From Candidatus Bathyarchaeota archaeon (GTDB lineage: Archaea; Thermoproteota; Bathyarchaeia; Bathyarchaeales; Bathycorpusculaceae): a stretch of DNA of 64,000 bases. Positions within the stretch are counted from its first letter, which is position 1. The number at the start of each line of letters is the position of its first letter. Both the position numbers and the translations under genes were made by a program. Below are positions 59,244 to 64,000 of the stretch, in pieces. The notes under the pieces are model-generated. The model did not search any database. It saw only the letters and a program-made list of their open reading frames with translations, and was not told the origin of the DNA. The stretch is taken from contig CAVRFW010000005.1 in the NCBI GenBank assembly GCA_963720565.1, forward strand, positions 320,001 to 384,000, given 5' to 3'.

Positions 59244-60714
59244 ATGAAACTGAGACTGGATGTTGACTATGCCTATCCTTCGAGAATCAAAAGCTTCATT
59301 TTCACAGCGCTTAAGCAGAAAAAGCAGAAAGCACTATCTCAAGAACGCAAAAACAATAGCCAGAATGATAGATGAGTCGCCGCGAGAAATTCAAGCTTAC
59401 TGGTTTTTTACCCCTCCCACTTGGCCCGACGATGAAATGCTGAGATTGCTCAATTCGGATAAGCATGAGATAGCTCTCCACGTAACCAATAATCCCTACG
59501 AGGAACTCCAAGGATTAGAAAAGGCTACCGGAAGAGATATAGAGTTTTACACCATCCATGGAACCGAGCGTTTATTGGCGCGGATAATTTGGAAACGAAA
59601 ACTTTGGGAATCCAGAACACCGATACCTGCTGATTTTCCATTGAAGTCTTTTCACGAGTTCCCGACTCTGGCTTTTGACCGCATATGTCACAATAGTTCA
59701 ATATCAGTTGCTGTAGCAATCGCTGAGGCGAGCATAGAGAAAGGAGAAGTATTAGAGATTCATCCTGAATGGCTCTTCCAGAGGGGAACAATTAACCACA
59801 GGGGACCATTCTACGGACCACTAAAACAGGTTCTGCAAGTTGACCGAGAATTAGACCAGCTTGTTATCCGCAAGAAAGCATTTGTAAGAATTGCTAAACT
59901 CCTTGAACCGAAAGAATACACGCATGATTTCGTTCCAACCGAGGAATTCATCCAGAAACTCGGGGATAGAGCAATAGACATTTTCACTTTCATCGAAAGA
60001 AAATGGTGCAACACTATCTCCAATGCTTCCAATTCATGGATAAAGACAGCTGACAATATTGCTCTCCTCAAAGTGGCAAGTTATGAAGATTGGTGGAAAA
60101 ACATTGGAAAAAAGACCCGCAACATGAATCGTAAAGCAGAAAAAACCGGAATAACAACCCAGGTGGTAATGCCAAGCGAAGAACTGGCTGAGGGCATTTG
60201 GAAGATTTACAATGAAACTCCTATACGGCAGGAAAGAGCTTTCCCGCACTACGGCGAGTCATTACTCTCAGTCAAGAACGACGTGTTTTCTCCTAGAAAG
60301 GGAGCGTTCATTGGTGCTTTTTTCGAAAACAGACTCGTCGGATTCATTCAACTCCTATACGGAGATAACATAGCTATAATATCCCAGATTCTTTCACTGC
60401 AAGAGTTCTGGGACAAGGCAGTCAACAACGCCCTGCTTGCCAAAGCAGTGGAGTTTTGTTCACAGAACCAGATGCAATGGATTATGTATGGCAGAATGGG
60501 AAATCACCCTTCCCTGGACAAATTCAAACAAAGCAACGATTTCAAAAAGTTTCTGTTAGCAAGATATTTTATACCCATCACAAAGAAAGGTCAAGTCGCT
60601 GTAAAATTGGGATTACACAACGATGCAAAAGATATCCTTCCTCAAAGAATAAAGTATTCACTCATCCCAGTGTACAATTGGATAAGCAGAAGAAGAGTCG
60701 GGATCAAGCGTTAG
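59244..60714 (+). CDS. Polysaccharide-deacetylase-like domain fused to a GNAT/FemAB-like domain (frameshift near 59310)
   Basis: MKLRLDVD (ATG 59244), HEIALH, TIHG, IHP; then WW..IGKKTRN..RKAEK.G, LVGFI, YGRMG...SL.KFK. Confidence 0.7.
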
Positions 60715-60783
60715 CGCAGGGTTTGCTGCAAGAGATTAAGAAAAGAAAAACGACAAGGCCGCACTAATGAAGGTGCAACGCTT

Positions 60784-61053
60784 CTAGAATAGGAGAGAAG
60801 TCAAGATCTTCCACAACTCTTCCTTATCCTTGATACTTCTGAATATCGCTTTTCCGCTTGCGTACATCCGGAAAGAAACATCATTGAAGATTAATTCGAA
60901 TATTATACCAGCTACACAGTTCTTGAGTTGAGCCTTCTTGAGAATTCTGTCGATGGCTTCATCTTTTTTATCATACCTGAATACTACAATTACGTCTTTC
61001 TCTGCTCCGCAGGTTCCTTCGATTCTTGCGACGTAATCGTTAACTGATGCCAT
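60784..61053 (-). CDS. Small hypothetical protein at the end of the Fe-S operon
   Basis: Start overlaps the sufS stop (TAATG); GTCG and RMYASGKAIF motifs. Confidence 0.7.
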   Translation of the reverse strand: MASVNDYVARIEGTCGAEKDVIVVFRYDKKDEAIDRILKKAQLKNCVAGIIFELIFNDVSFRMYASGKAIFRSIKDKEELWKILTSLLF

Positions 61054-62285
61054 TAGAGCTGCTCGATCTCCTGCAATACTTCCACGAAGCGGTCGACCTC
61101 TTCACGCGTGTTATATATGTAGAAGCTTGCTCGGGCAGAAGATTGCAGTCTAAAAACTTGATGCAACGGTTGCGCGCAATGGAAACCGCTGCGAATCATT
61201 ATACCGTAGTTATCAAAATAGAGTGCGACATCATGGGAGGATAAACCATCGATATTGAAGGGGATTATTCCACATTTTGAAGACAAGTCACTTGGTCCAT
61301 AGATTGTTACCTTGGGGAATTTTTGCATCTGCTTTACTGCGTACTCGTTTAGCAGTCTTTCATGCTCTAGGACATCAGCCATTCCAATCTGCTCAAGATA
61401 CTTGACGGCTTCACTCAAAGCAATAGCTCCGCTTATGTTCGGTGTTCCAGCTTCAAATTTCCAAGGCGGTTCATTCCATGTTATATCGCACCTTTCTCTT
61501 CCCTGGCTTAAAGAAACGTCTTTTATCATTTCTCCTCCCCCTTGGAAGGGACCCATTTTTTCAAGTAGGTCCCTCTTGGCATAAAGCACCCCGATTCCTG
61601 TTGGACCCAACATCTTATGTCCAGAAAAAGCTAGAAAATCTATGTCTAAATCTTTGACGTCTACCGGCATGTGTGGAACAGATTGAGCTCCATCAACCAG
61701 CATCAGAGCACTGTGCTCATGAGCCACTTTAGCTATTCGCTTAACGTCATTGACAACCCCGCTAACGTTCGAGACTTGGCTCAAGCAAGCTATTCTTGTC
61801 TTGCTGGAAAACTTGCTCTCAAAGTCTTCATAATCAAGTGTCCCATCTGCGTGAACCTGTGCGTATTTCAATGTGAACCCTCTCAGTTTTGCGACAATTT
61901 CCCATGGGACAATATTGCTGTGATGCTCCATTAAAGATACCAAAACTTCATCACCTTTTCCCAAGTTGCCAAGTCCCCAGGAATAGGCGACTAGGTTTAT
62001 AGCCTCTGTAGTGCCTCTGACAAAAACGATTTCCGACGAATCTCTTGCACCTATGAAAGCTGAAATTCTTTCGCGTGCTTTTTCGTAACGCTCGGTCGCT
62101 TCGAGAGAAATTGTGTGAACAGCCCTATGAACGTTAGCGTTATAGTTCTCGTAGAAATCGCTTATTGCTTCAATTACTTGCCGTGGTTTTTGGGCGGTAG
62201 CCGCATTGTCAAAATAGATTAGAGGGTTATTGTTGATTTTTCGTTTTAGGATCGGAAAATCTTCGCGGATTTTGTAGGGATCCAA
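61053..62285 (-). CDS. sufS: Cysteine desulfurase, class II
   Basis: IREDFPIL, YFDNAATAQKP, MEHHSNIVPW, DGAQS, SGHKMLGPTG, FEAGTP, RSGFHCAQP, RASFYIYN. Confidence 0.95.
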   Translation of the reverse strand: MDPYKIREDFPILKRKINNNPLIYFDNAATAQKPRQVIEAISDFYENYNANVHRAVHTISLEATERYEKARERISAFIGARDSSEIVFVRGTTEAINLVAYSWGLGNLGKGDEVLVSLMEHHSNIVPWEIVAKLRGFTLKYAQVHADGTLDYEDFESKFSSKTRIACLSQVSNVSGVVNDVKRIAKVAHEHSALMLVDGAQSVPHMPVDVKDLDIDFLAFSGHKMLGPTGIGVLYAKRDLLEKMGPFQGGGEMIKDVSLSQGRERCDITWNEPPWKFEAGTPNISGAIALSEAVKYLEQIGMADVLEHERLLNEYAVKQMQKFPKVTIYGPSDLSSKCGIIPFNIDGLSSHDVALYFDNYGIMIRSGFHCAQPLHQVFRLQSSARASFYIYNTREEVDRFVEVLQEIEQL

Positions 62286-62288
62286 TAA

Positions 62289-62792
62289 CTATTTTTCTCC
62301 CTCTGCCTTCAACCTCTTGGACAACATCTTTGCCAGTTCTTCCTCTTCCACTGCCTGTTTTTCCTCGAAAGTCAGTTCATTTGGCAACCAACTGGGATTG
62401 CCGCTTCTATCAGTGTAGTATTTCCTTATTGCTCGTTTCAGAGCGCCCACAGCGAGAACTCCGCAATGGAACTTGATGCTGGGTAATCCTCCGACTTCTT
62501 CAGTCACCTTTTTCCATGTTATGTCTTCCCAAGCACTCTTCAGACTGAGTCCTCGAACCATCTCAGTGACTATGCTGGAGGTGGCGATGTTGGCGGCGCA
62601 ACCGTAGCTTTCAAATGTAGCTCTTTCAATTACTTCATGCTCGTTAATTTTCAGGTAGAAAGTGATCATGTCTCCGCAGGCTGGATTGCCTGCAACTGCA
62701 GTGACTGTAGCATCTTCCATTTTTCCCAGATTCTTAGGGTTTCTGAATAAATCAAGGACTTTCGGATTGTACGGTAAAGGTACACGTGACAT
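62289..62792 (-). CDS. iscU: Fe-S cluster scaffold IscU/MisU
   Basis: F.NPKN.G, GNPACGD, GCAA.IA.SS, LPSIKFHC; charged helical C-terminal extension. Confidence 0.92.
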   Translation of the reverse strand: MSRVPLPYNPKVLDLFRNPKNLGKMEDATVTAVAGNPACGDMITFYLKINEHEVIERATFESYGCAANIATSSIVTEMVRGLSLKSAWEDITWKKVTEEVGGLPSIKFHCGVLAVGALKRAIRKYYTDRSGNPSWLPNELTFEEKQAVEEEELAKMLSKRLKAEGEK

Positions 62793-62794
62793 TC

Positions 62795-63997
62795 CTAATC
62801 AACTCCTGTTGAGCCAACTATTCCCCTTATTCTATTTACAGCCTTTGGTAGTGCTTCCAAAACATAGGCGATATCTTCGTCAGTGTGAGTTCGTATTGTT
62901 TTCATCAGTATGCTTCCGTGAGCTTCGCTGAATCTTCGGCCTATGGCTACAAGAACATGGCTTGGTTGAAGGAGTCTTCTGCTGCAAGCGCTGCCGCTTG
63001 ACACGTAGATCCCAGCCAGGCTTAGTTCAATTGTCAGAGCTTCACCCTCACACCTCAGGAAGCTCATGTTAGCATTGTCAGGTGCTCGCTTGTCGCCTTT
63101 TGGACCGTTCAGCTTAACTTCAGAGAGTTTCTCGAATATGCCACTAACTAGTTTGTCTCGCAGTCTGCGCATGCGATCCACGTTTGACTCAAAGTCCTGG
63201 AACACTAATTCGCTTGCTTTTGTGAAACCGACAATTAGGGGAGTATTTTCAATCCCTGGCCAGAGCTTCTGTGTTCCTATTTGACCTTCGAGAATTCTTT
63301 CTAGATTGACGCCTTCTCGCACATAGAGAGCGCCCATGCCTCGCGGTCCCAAAATCTTGTAGCTACTGACAGTTGCCATGTCTACTTTCAAGTCCTGCAC
63401 GTTTAGCGATATTCTGCCATATGCGTCTGAGGCATCGGTATGAAAGAGAGTTTCAGGGTTCTTGTCTTTAACGATATCCCGCGCTTCCTTTATTGGTTGT
63501 ATTGTACCGATTTCGTTGTTAACGGCTGAAAGGCTTACAAGAACGGTGTCTTTGTCAACGGTTTCCTGAAGTTTTGCAAGATCTACAAAACCTTCTTTGT
63601 CAACCGAAATTTTGACTGTAGTGAAACCGAATTTCTGCAACATCTCTGCGACATGTAAAACGTTTATGGGCTCAATCTCTGAAATCACGATTTTCTTACC
63701 CTTGTTTTTCATGGCAAAGGCCGAACTCATCAACGCAAGGTTGTTGGCTTCTGTTTCGCCTGGCGTAAAAGTAATTTCTTCGAGAATTTTTGCGCCCATG
63801 AACTTGCTGATTTTTTGAGCCGATTCCATTATGGTTTCGAAGGCTTCCCAACCAGGCTTATGCGTGAGCGTGGGGTTGCCATACGCCCGCTGACTATAGT
63901 AAGGTATCATGGCTTCAACTACCTCCCCAGGCACGACGGTTGAGTTTTCGTTATCCAAGTAAACTTCACGGGCAATATTCTCGTGCGCTTTGAGCAA
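62795..63997 (-). CDS. IscS/NifS-like class I cysteine desulfurase homolog with a degenerate active site (start at or beyond the window edge)
   Basis: YLDN, GNP, TEANN, NNEIGTIQP, K.LGP.G.GALY, EGEA, VSSGSACS, PSHVL.AIG. Confidence 0.88.
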   Translation of the reverse strand: MLKAHENIAREVYLDNENSTVVPGEVVEAMIPYYSQRAYGNPTLTHKPGWEAFETIMESAQKISKFMGAKILEEITFTPGETEANNLALMSSAFAMKNKGKKIVISEIEPINVLHVAEMLQKFGFTTVKISVDKEGFVDLAKLQETVDKDTVLVSLSAVNNEIGTIQPIKEARDIVKDKNPETLFHTDASDAYGRISLNVQDLKVDMATVSSYKILGPRGMGALYVREGVNLERILEGQIGTQKLWPGIENTPLIVGFTKASELVFQDFESNVDRMRRLRDKLVSGIFEKLSEVKLNGPKGDKRAPDNANMSFLRCEGEALTIELSLAGIYVSSGSACSRRLLQPSHVLVAIGRRFSEAHGSILMKTIRTHTDEDIAYVLEALPKAVNRIRGIVGSTGVD

Positions 63998-64000
63998 TTC

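Follow-up and report, generated by a model that had tools for sequence, protein, structure and literature searches.

How could an IscU-type scaffold be supplied with sulfur if the desulfurase homolog encoded beside it has a rebuilt active site? This question is raised by four minus-strand genes at the end of the window, by which we mean the whole analysed stretch of 64,000 nucleotides. The first gene, iscS* (62795–64000), encodes a type-I cysteine-desulfurase homolog of 407 aa, likely a non-catalytic partner of IscU; its ATG lies 18 nt past the window end, at G000:C5:384018. It is followed by iscU (62289–62792) for an IscU-type scaffold of 167 aa, sufS (61053–62285, TTG start) for a type-II cysteine desulfurase of 410 aa with an intact catalytic set, and the small gene X (60784–61053) for an 89-aa single-domain protein with a predicted TBP-like fold. 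The tight coupling described in the earlier note is borne out, as all four open reading frames are present with gaps of 2 nt (iscS*/iscU) and 3 nt (iscU/sufS) and a 1-nt overlap (sufS/X, TAATG). A minus-strand hairpin (60758–60779) directly 3' of X, the last gene, is a possible terminator, with hairpins being no more frequent than by chance (2 found vs 4.2 expected from shuffles); the promoter scan, in which bacterial patterns were used for an archaeal host, gave a chance-level result. Upstream of iscS* lies a divergent Hel308-like helicase gene. The source genome is 89% complete, and its assembly contains split genes elsewhere.

Residues kept and replaced in IscS*

Alignment with E. coli IscS (E. 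coli residues are given in brackets, other positions in the numbering of the 407-aa protein) showed that IscS* retains D195 (Asp180), K221 (Lys206), and C345 (Cys328), as had been claimed for the Asp, the PLP Lys, and the mobile-loop Cys. Every replacement listed in the earlier note also holds: P117 (His104), D198 (Gln183), Y220 (His205 of the SGHK motif), L371 (Arg354), and the motif swaps of SGAT to PGET, RSGT to WPGI, and SIRF to SILM. The rebuilt pocket comprises E24-N25, P117, D198, Y220, W253-P254, I256, and L371, and Thr243 of E. coli IscS is also replaced in IscS* and its homologs. The fold itself is recognisable (PF00266, E 1e-55; Foldseek matches to IscS structures with a TM of about 0.8; SSGSAC loop), while the scores lie under the curated IscS/NifS cut-offs (369.8 vs 530.75 for TIGR03402 and 288.1 vs 643.2 for TIGR02006). 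The AlphaFold model has a mean pLDDT of 75 with loops below 50, and is weak at the active-site loops. The sequence search was topped by the 406-aa PDB entries 9WE*/9WF*, for which a literature search found no describing paper.

In the desulfurase cycle, His serves as the acid-base residue and Arg as the substrate-carboxylate residue (PMC8918507, section 5); this pair, expected in active type-I desulfurases, is represented in IscS* by P117 and L371. IscS* is likely not a desulfurase: the pocket changes are directly visible in the alignment, and the loss of activity is their probable consequence.

The substitutions are shared by the homologs, a point that the earlier note had proposed to check. 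In a set of 164 sequences (44 locus-derived and 120 from databases), they are fixed in 161–164 of 162–164 homologs: Pro replaces His104 in 161/162 and Leu replaces Arg in 162/162, Asp for Gln and Trp-Pro being found in 164/164 each. The Lys and the Asp are retained in all 164, and the Cys in all 163 sequences covered. Among full-length type-I representatives, 110 of 134 retain all seven key residues. In the clade rows (n = 44), Glu-Asn, Asp for Gln, Trp-Pro, and Leu for Arg are fixed in 43–44, and the loop Cys, Gly310-Glu311, and Trp45 in all 44, with Trp45 being variable in canonical rows. Basal clade members retain His104, His205, and Thr76. A Pro-type subclade (22 rows, same partners) has Pro and Tyr/Phe for the two His residues and, in most rows, Glu at the position of Ala75, which adjoins the phosphate site in the IscS structure. 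The former description of IscS* as PLP-impaired fits this subclade and may not extend to the basal members, which, with both His residues kept, may still bind B6.

A sequencing or indel artefact is excluded, since the same replacements are near-universal in the 164 homologs and none of the variants listed for other contigs falls in these codons, so that the earlier statement that indel errors cannot explain the changes stands. The gene is covered by contigs of four runs from four studies; the best run is possibly the source sample itself. The 40 variant rows listed, beyond which there are 23 more, all lie outside the replaced codons. No RNA run listed had a useful share of the gene. A decaying pseudogene is ruled out by purifying selection, as dN/dS is 0.05–0.25 in 11/11 close pairs, similar to iscU and sufS.

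Distribution of the clade and its SufS and IscU partners

The IscS* clade is present in 72 of the 301 Thermoproteota genomes and, judged from its sequences, is a distinct archaeal clade, apart from the A. fulgidus Lys-to-Asp (SSND) type. The IscS* and SSND groups each form one side of a starred branch in the tree, and a topology uniting them was rejected with p-AU 0.003 in a test where two rows joined the group after the tree had been seen and SSND-type proteins stood in for A. fulgidus IscS. By these branches and this p-AU value, common lineage with the SSND type is ruled out. The genome itself carries a second iscS on contig C12, in a true A. fulgidus-type locus; in this SSND-type copy the PLP Lys is replaced by Asp and Arg354 by Met. 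Our search of the literature, as far as its texts were accessible, found no paper on the IscS* clade or X; supplements of the MIS/SMS work may list these genes.

The iscS*-iscU-sufS synteny, also proposed for checking, is conserved. Where loci have room 3' of iscS*, iscU is found in 43/43, sufS in 39/40, and X in 35/36, and in deeper lineages sufS stays near iscS* in varied order (upstream, divergent, or downstream). A SufS-like match occurs in 70 of the 72 clade genomes against a background of 226/301. In two genomes with IscS* (G197 and G101, 96–97% complete) neither SufS nor canonical IscS was found, so SufS is not always the sulfur source.

The SufS product scores 580.9 bits against a TIGR01979 cut-off of 475.1 and keeps the catalytic residues H121, D198, Q201, K224, T281, C370, and R385, invariant in 34 rows. 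It is the only desulfurase with the full catalytic set found in the 89%-complete genome. SufS-type enzymes are described as requiring a dedicated acceptor (PMC13066941), and SufE and SufU are missing from most archaea (PMC12442378); neither was found in this genome, in which SmsB and SmsC homologs and an E1 pathway are present. IscU has the ligand set C39, D41, C65, H109, and C110, LPSIK as its LPPVK-like motif, and, at the C-terminus, about 40 extra residues that are specific to the clade; it scores above the PF01592 cut-off and below those of TIGR01999 and TIGR03419. SufS is likely the sulfur source for IscS*-IscU because of the synteny and because no other intact desulfurase was found in the genome. 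The hybrid system suggested in the earlier note survives to this extent, with IscS* tied to IscU and SufS as the likely source, and loses its heterodimer option (see below).

The small protein X

An earlier reading left X as a small Cys protein, and a predicted TBP-like fold and a gene slot shared with TusA can now be assigned to it. Its Cys15, invariant in 175/175 rows, lies in a CG motif that aligns with the LCG of the archaeal E1 tail (HHalign 94.5%, E 7.5e-8, three E1 tails), and the X profile also matches E1 tails. The best structural match of the X model is archaeal TBP, which is a modest match (Z 6.5, rmsd 2.7, 78 aligned); no Foldseek match at E ≤ 0.001 and no Pfam match were found. 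X resembles the TBP-like tail of archaeal E1/MoeB, of which it is a stand-alone relative. The 2009 work of Burroughs on E1 domains reportedly names a cysteine-containing TBP-like domain.

X occurs in 49 of the 301 genomes, 48 of which also have IscS*, and in 1/229 non-clade genomes; 48/49 overstates independence, as the rows used to build the X profile were clade-linked and the genomes are relatives of one another. Its gene mostly stands directly after sufS or directly after iscU. In other lineages (L067, L071, L072, and L076) it lies after iscU with no sufS beside it, and in G018, G130, and G231 it follows sufS away from iscS*. Of 30 deeper loci, 18 have a TusA-like gene within 2 kb of iscS*-iscU, 9 have X there, 3 have neither, and none has both. 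TusA is also found beside all 6 A. fulgidus-type loci and beside none of the 3 canonical IscS loci. X takes the gene slot filled by TusA in related loci, and this exclusion holds at the locus level only: in G231, TusA adjoins iscS* and X lies next to sufS on a different contig, and G120, G262, and G298 each carry both genes. From these features, X is predicted to be a persulfide carrier on Cys15.

Proposed sulfur supply of IscU and comparison with known systems

We propose, at about even odds, that the operon is an Fe-S assembly unit in which sulfur from SufS reaches IscU by way of X and IscS*. SufS would make the persulfide from cysteine, X would carry it on its single Cys, and the mobile-loop Cys345 of IscS* would take it from X, and then either hand the sulfur to the bound long IscU or help to ligate its cluster. 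Such a flow would be the E. coli IscS-to-TusA hand-over in reverse. This relay is built on the observed pocket changes, purifying selection, gene order, SufS and IscU residues, X Cys, and TusA slot exchange, from which we infer all the binding steps and the direction of sulfur flow. Several observations speak against it. Lys221 and Asp195 are invariant and the His pair is kept in basal members, which a pure pseudo-enzyme would not need; SufS is widespread in the phylum, and SmsBC or the E1 pathway could be its client instead; the structural similarity of X to its best match is modest; and TusA and X co-occur in the four genomes named above.

A rather unlikely alternative is that IscS* acts on IscU purely as a structural partner or Cys ligand. 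Sulfur would then arrive as free sulfide or inorganic sulfane sulfur, which in basal forms would come by way of DsrE/TusA, and X would serve SufS for other acceptors. The inactive A. fulgidus IscS, which is the top fold match of IscS*, has been suggested to supply one Cys ligand (PMC8918507); DsrE-TusA pairs adjoin many basal iscS* loci, and DsrE proteins are reported to donate sulfur to TusA (PMC11094781). The two clade genomes without SufS and the three with X after sufS, away from iscS*, point in the same direction. However, this reading does not agree with the four loci that have X after iscU and no sufS next to it, nor with the near absence of X from SufS-bearing genomes without IscS*.

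It is improbable that IscS* is a repurposed PLP enzyme for a sulfur donor other than L-cysteine, e.g., one without a carboxylate. Such a role would suit the invariant Lys and Asp, the new residues that are fixed rather than drifting, and the His104, His205, and Thr76 of basal members, but the Pro-type subclade has lost both His residues, mostly with Glu at the Ala75 position, while keeping the same partners, and an intact SufS is co-selected. Slightly less probable still is that the long U protein, as a SufU-like zinc sulfur-transferase, passes sulfur from SufS to SmsBC, with IscS* as its chaperone or regulator. SufS H351, corresponding to B. subtilis H342, is present in 34/34 rows and the genome encodes homologs of SmsB and SmsC; however, U fits the IscU/NifU models better (128 and 107 bits vs 60 for SufU, or 59.7 against a cut-off of 92.5 over residues 8–88 only), has Lys (K-x-H-C) where SufU has Arg three residues before the last Cys, and is encoded after iscS*, not sufS, in all loci. 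Finally, the earlier suggestion of a heterodimer with an active IscS encoded just outside the window is hardly credible: the genome has a second iscS, but this degenerate C12 copy lacks the PLP Lys and Arg354, the gene upstream of 64000 proved on inspection to be the helicase gene and not an iscS, no active IscS was found elsewhere in the 89%-complete genome, 20/28 genomes of the family lack a second type-I match (E ≤ 1e-60), and, because the Lys and His of desulfurases work from the same subunit, two dead copies cannot complement each other.

Returning to the relay, we tentatively consider a broader picture, which is possible rather than probable: archaeal "receiver" pseudo-desulfurases may have arisen twice independently, with a reverse IscS-to-TusA relay loading IscU; X would join SufE and SufU as a third type of SufS acceptor; and its counterpart on archaeal E1 enzymes would do the job of the Uba4/MOCS3 rhodanese domain. 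The sulfur supply of an inactive IscS-IscU pair is called open in a 2022 review (PMC8918507). The operon names a candidate acceptor and consists of four small soluble proteins, so that both the sulfur-supply and the acceptor questions are testable in one tube. The "cysteine desulfurase" annotation is likely wrong for genes in about a quarter of the sampled Thermoproteota genomes (72/301), which affects the counts of MIS systems in archaea.

Among the known systems, the best structural match is the inactive desulfurase paralog A. fulgidus IscS2, paired with IscU (PDB 4EB5, 4EB7, 4HVK; D199K, 4R5F), which shares with IscS* the type-I fold, the loop Cys, the loss of Arg354 and Gln183, and the pairing with iscU. 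Unlike it, IscS* belongs to a separate clade, keeps the Lys (SSYK) and loses the His and Thr, while its IscU is C-terminally extended and SufS and X are linked to its locus. The MIS system (MisS-MisU; M. acetivorans IscS2-IscU2) is likewise a minimal archaeal S-U pair without chaperones, but IscS* has no catalytic His and Arg and is accompanied by a type-II SufS and a small carrier candidate; M. acetivorans IscS1, also a degenerate copy, lacks the Lys. As in SufS-SufE and SufS-SufU, an intact SufS requires a single-Cys acceptor, whereas the candidate acceptor here has a TBP-like fold. The likeness to E. coli IscS-TusA (PDB 3LVJ) lies in the TusA-like genes flanking basal loci and in the clade-wide Trp45, which contacts TusA in the E. 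coli enzyme (PMC2854127), but the interface residues Asp52, Arg55, Arg220, and Arg237 are not kept in the clade and the proposed flow is into IscS*, not out. X aligns, Cys on Cys, with the TBP-like C-terminal domain of archaeal E1/MoeB, to which the accessible parts of PMC2948915 and PMC3597702 assign no function; unlike this tail, X stands alone, in an Fe-S operon.

The IscS* operon and its active site

The minus-strand operon at 60784-64000 is real and conserved. The window corresponds to C5:320001-384000, and the closest named relatives belong to Bathyarchaeia. Re-examination of the window sequence bore out its four genes, their spacing and every motif change listed in the earlier note for the IscS-like protein (IscS*, 407 aa, 62795-64000), whose start lies 18 nt past the window end. 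The note's further idea of an active IscS encoded just upstream of position 64000 found no support: the next gene there is a divergent Hel308-like helicase.

In the alignment to E. coli IscS, D195, K221 and C345 (E. coli Cys328) are retained; P117, D198 and Y220 replace His104, Gln183 and His205; W253-P254, I256 and L371 replace Arg240-Ser241, Thr243 and Arg354. An additional change is a new E24-N25 at Ser10-Ala11. The substitutions are common to homologs, being fixed in the 44 locus-derived and 120 database sequences (161-164 of 162-164 per residue). A review (PMC8918507) describes Lys, His, Arg and Cys as strictly conserved, His being the acid-base catalyst and Arg the carboxylate anchor. 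Nei-Gojobori dN/dS of iscS* is 0.05-0.25 in 11/11 close pairs. That Lys and Asp never vary points to B6 binding having been kept, just as A. fulgidus IscS binds PMP, or else to a different reaction.

Among the best sequence matches of IscS* are 406-aa cysteine desulfurase variants (PDB 9WER, 9WEP, 9WEW, 9WFE and others), with variation at these same sites of the pocket (Gln/Ala, SAHK/TAHK). This series may come from an IscS-inactivation study; our literature search found no paper for it.

Spread and origin of degenerate IscS proteins

Across a sample of 301 Thermoproteota genomes the IscS* match scores are bimodal, with 71 genomes at or above 50% identity, one gene split over two contigs, and the rest at or below 46%; motifs were inspected directly in 38 of these 72 genomes and the remainder assigned by the score gap. 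In a FastTree phylogeny of 192 rows, all 47 clade rows occupy one branch (support 1.0), within which the 22 His-to-Pro rows form a sub-branch (0.999). Asp replaces Gln in 43/44 clade rows. Since basal members keep both His104 and His205 yet share E-N, Asp, W-P and Leu for Arg with the clade, we infer from the tree, rooted on E. coli IscS, that the substrate site was probably rebuilt first and His lost later.

In the source genome (88.8% complete) we found three desulfurase-like genes: SufS, IscS* and a copy on contig C12 with Asp for the PLP Lys. The latter belongs to a dsrE-tusA-iscS-iscU locus (C12:131700-135000; L003:2693-5986) encoding an A. fulgidus-type IscS (“SSND type”, His kept) and a short IscU, so that the genome holds two different degenerate IscS genes. 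A CDGSH protein gene follows this locus; upstream, an HTH gene and fragments resembling cysteine synthase were named by eye. IQ-TREE (42 of the 192 rows) separates the IscS* clade (98/99) from the SSND type (100/97), with canonical rows between them. Their union as a single group was rejected (p-AU 0.003; two rows joined the group after tree inspection, and SSND-type proteins stood in for A. fulgidus IscS).

Degeneration of IscS-like proteins seems to have happened many times: 24 of the 134 full-length type-I desulfurase representatives (P0242-P0390) lack at least one of seven key residues, in many differing patterns. A third degenerate type, keeping Lys, Thr and Arg and lacking His and Gln, lies between sufS and iscU in two loci (L109:3486-7275, L110:3798-7607), followed by a Cys-rich protein of 318-335 aa with no Pfam family and weak matches to the profile of X, the small operon protein.

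Operon partners and the X/TusA exchange

SufS (61053-62285) is intact, as had been noted, and the iscS*-iscU-sufS synteny persists: iscU is next in 43/43 named loci with room and sufS in 39/40. The operon IscU (62289-62792) has the full set of cluster ligands, and its C-terminal extension is shared by all aligned clade loci but missing from every SSND-type locus. X (60784-61053, 89 aa) is next in 35/36 of the 44 named loci; the sole exception, L043, has dsrE-tusA instead, and TusA is absent from the other 43.

Cys15 of X is invariant (175/175 rows in one alignment, 34/34 in another). Its structure is predicted confidently (pLDDT 91), with archaeal TBP as the top, modest match (Z 6.5), and a profile comparison matches it to E1 tails (94.5%), the cysteines lining up. 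Two papers note this TBP-like domain on E1/MoeB without an assigned function (PMC2948915, PMC3597702). X occurs in 49/301 genomes (three weak matches), 48 of which carry IscS*; the remaining one, G143, gave no IscS* match at 89% completeness. A second, stand-alone copy (L002:7778-8047; 58% identical, Cys kept) is flanked by an ABC transporter operon and a gene for a Dph6-like ATP pyrophosphatase.

Of 30 deeper loci, 18 carry a TusA-like gene within 2 kb of iscS*-iscU and nine carry X there; three have neither, of which one is cut off by a contig end, and no locus has both. Ten of the counted genes went into building the TusA profile, and the counts are not independent events because the genomes are related. 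Some genomes have TusA beside iscS* and X elsewhere. TusA adjoins 6/6 SSND-type loci versus 0/3 canonical IscS loci.

Several other features were also recorded. An HTH protein with conserved Cys residues, possibly a regulator, recurs beside these Fe-S loci (L081:4425-4796, L082, L088, L091, L100, L101, L105, L109, L110). A 484-aa gene at 59260-60714 (plus strand), convergent with the operon and without NCBIfam match, is present in 29 of the clustered loci and closes a glycosyltransferase-rich region (named by eye). Genes for sufC/smsC (L119:397-988) and, named by eye, purB-like (L001:8415-9768) and radical-SAM-like (L002:9042-10501) proteins are each broken across at least two frames, suggesting assembly indel errors or real decay.

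A possible sulfur relay and known systems

A one-Cys small protein accompanies catalytically incomplete IscS genes and is absent from the three canonical loci examined. The simplest reading is that the incomplete IscS proteins are persulfide importers. In the E. coli pair, Cys19 of TusA meets Cys328 of IscS, with Trp45 as a contact (PMC2854127); Trp45 is fixed in 44/44 clade rows, and other TusA contacts are not kept. SufS requires an acceptor (PMC13066941), and the neighbour of X is sufS in some lineages and iscU in others. Given this precedent, the acceptor need and the position of X, SufS-Cys370 might hand persulfide to X-Cys15, which would pass the sulfur to IscS*-Cys345 for final delivery to IscU. 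We found no SufE in the source genome at its 88.8% completeness.

SufS, in contrast to X, is widespread, being present in 226/301 Thermoproteota genomes. The invariant Lys and Asp, and the genomes with TusA beside iscS* and X elsewhere, count against the relay, as do two genomes lacking a SufS match. Genome searches of G197 and G101, which have IscS*, found no SufS or canonical IscS, and in G101 a weakly matching SufS-like enzyme of class V was all that turned up; an inorganic DsrE-TusA route supplying sulfur (PMC11094781) fits these two genomes. SufS could also serve SmsBC or E1 instead: the source genome has SmsB/SmsC homologs and a single E1, which bears a TBP-like tail. Its two U-type genes are both IscU-like. 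IscS* is probably not an active MisS.

In the literature covered, to which key subscription papers and supplements did not belong, we found nothing on the IscS* clade, the long IscU or X. Degenerate IscS copies as such are already published for A. fulgidus and for M. acetivorans IscS1. By analogy, the IscS*-IscU pair may resemble the inactive IscS-IscU of A. fulgidus in its way of working; the marker and clade tests place it outside that group.
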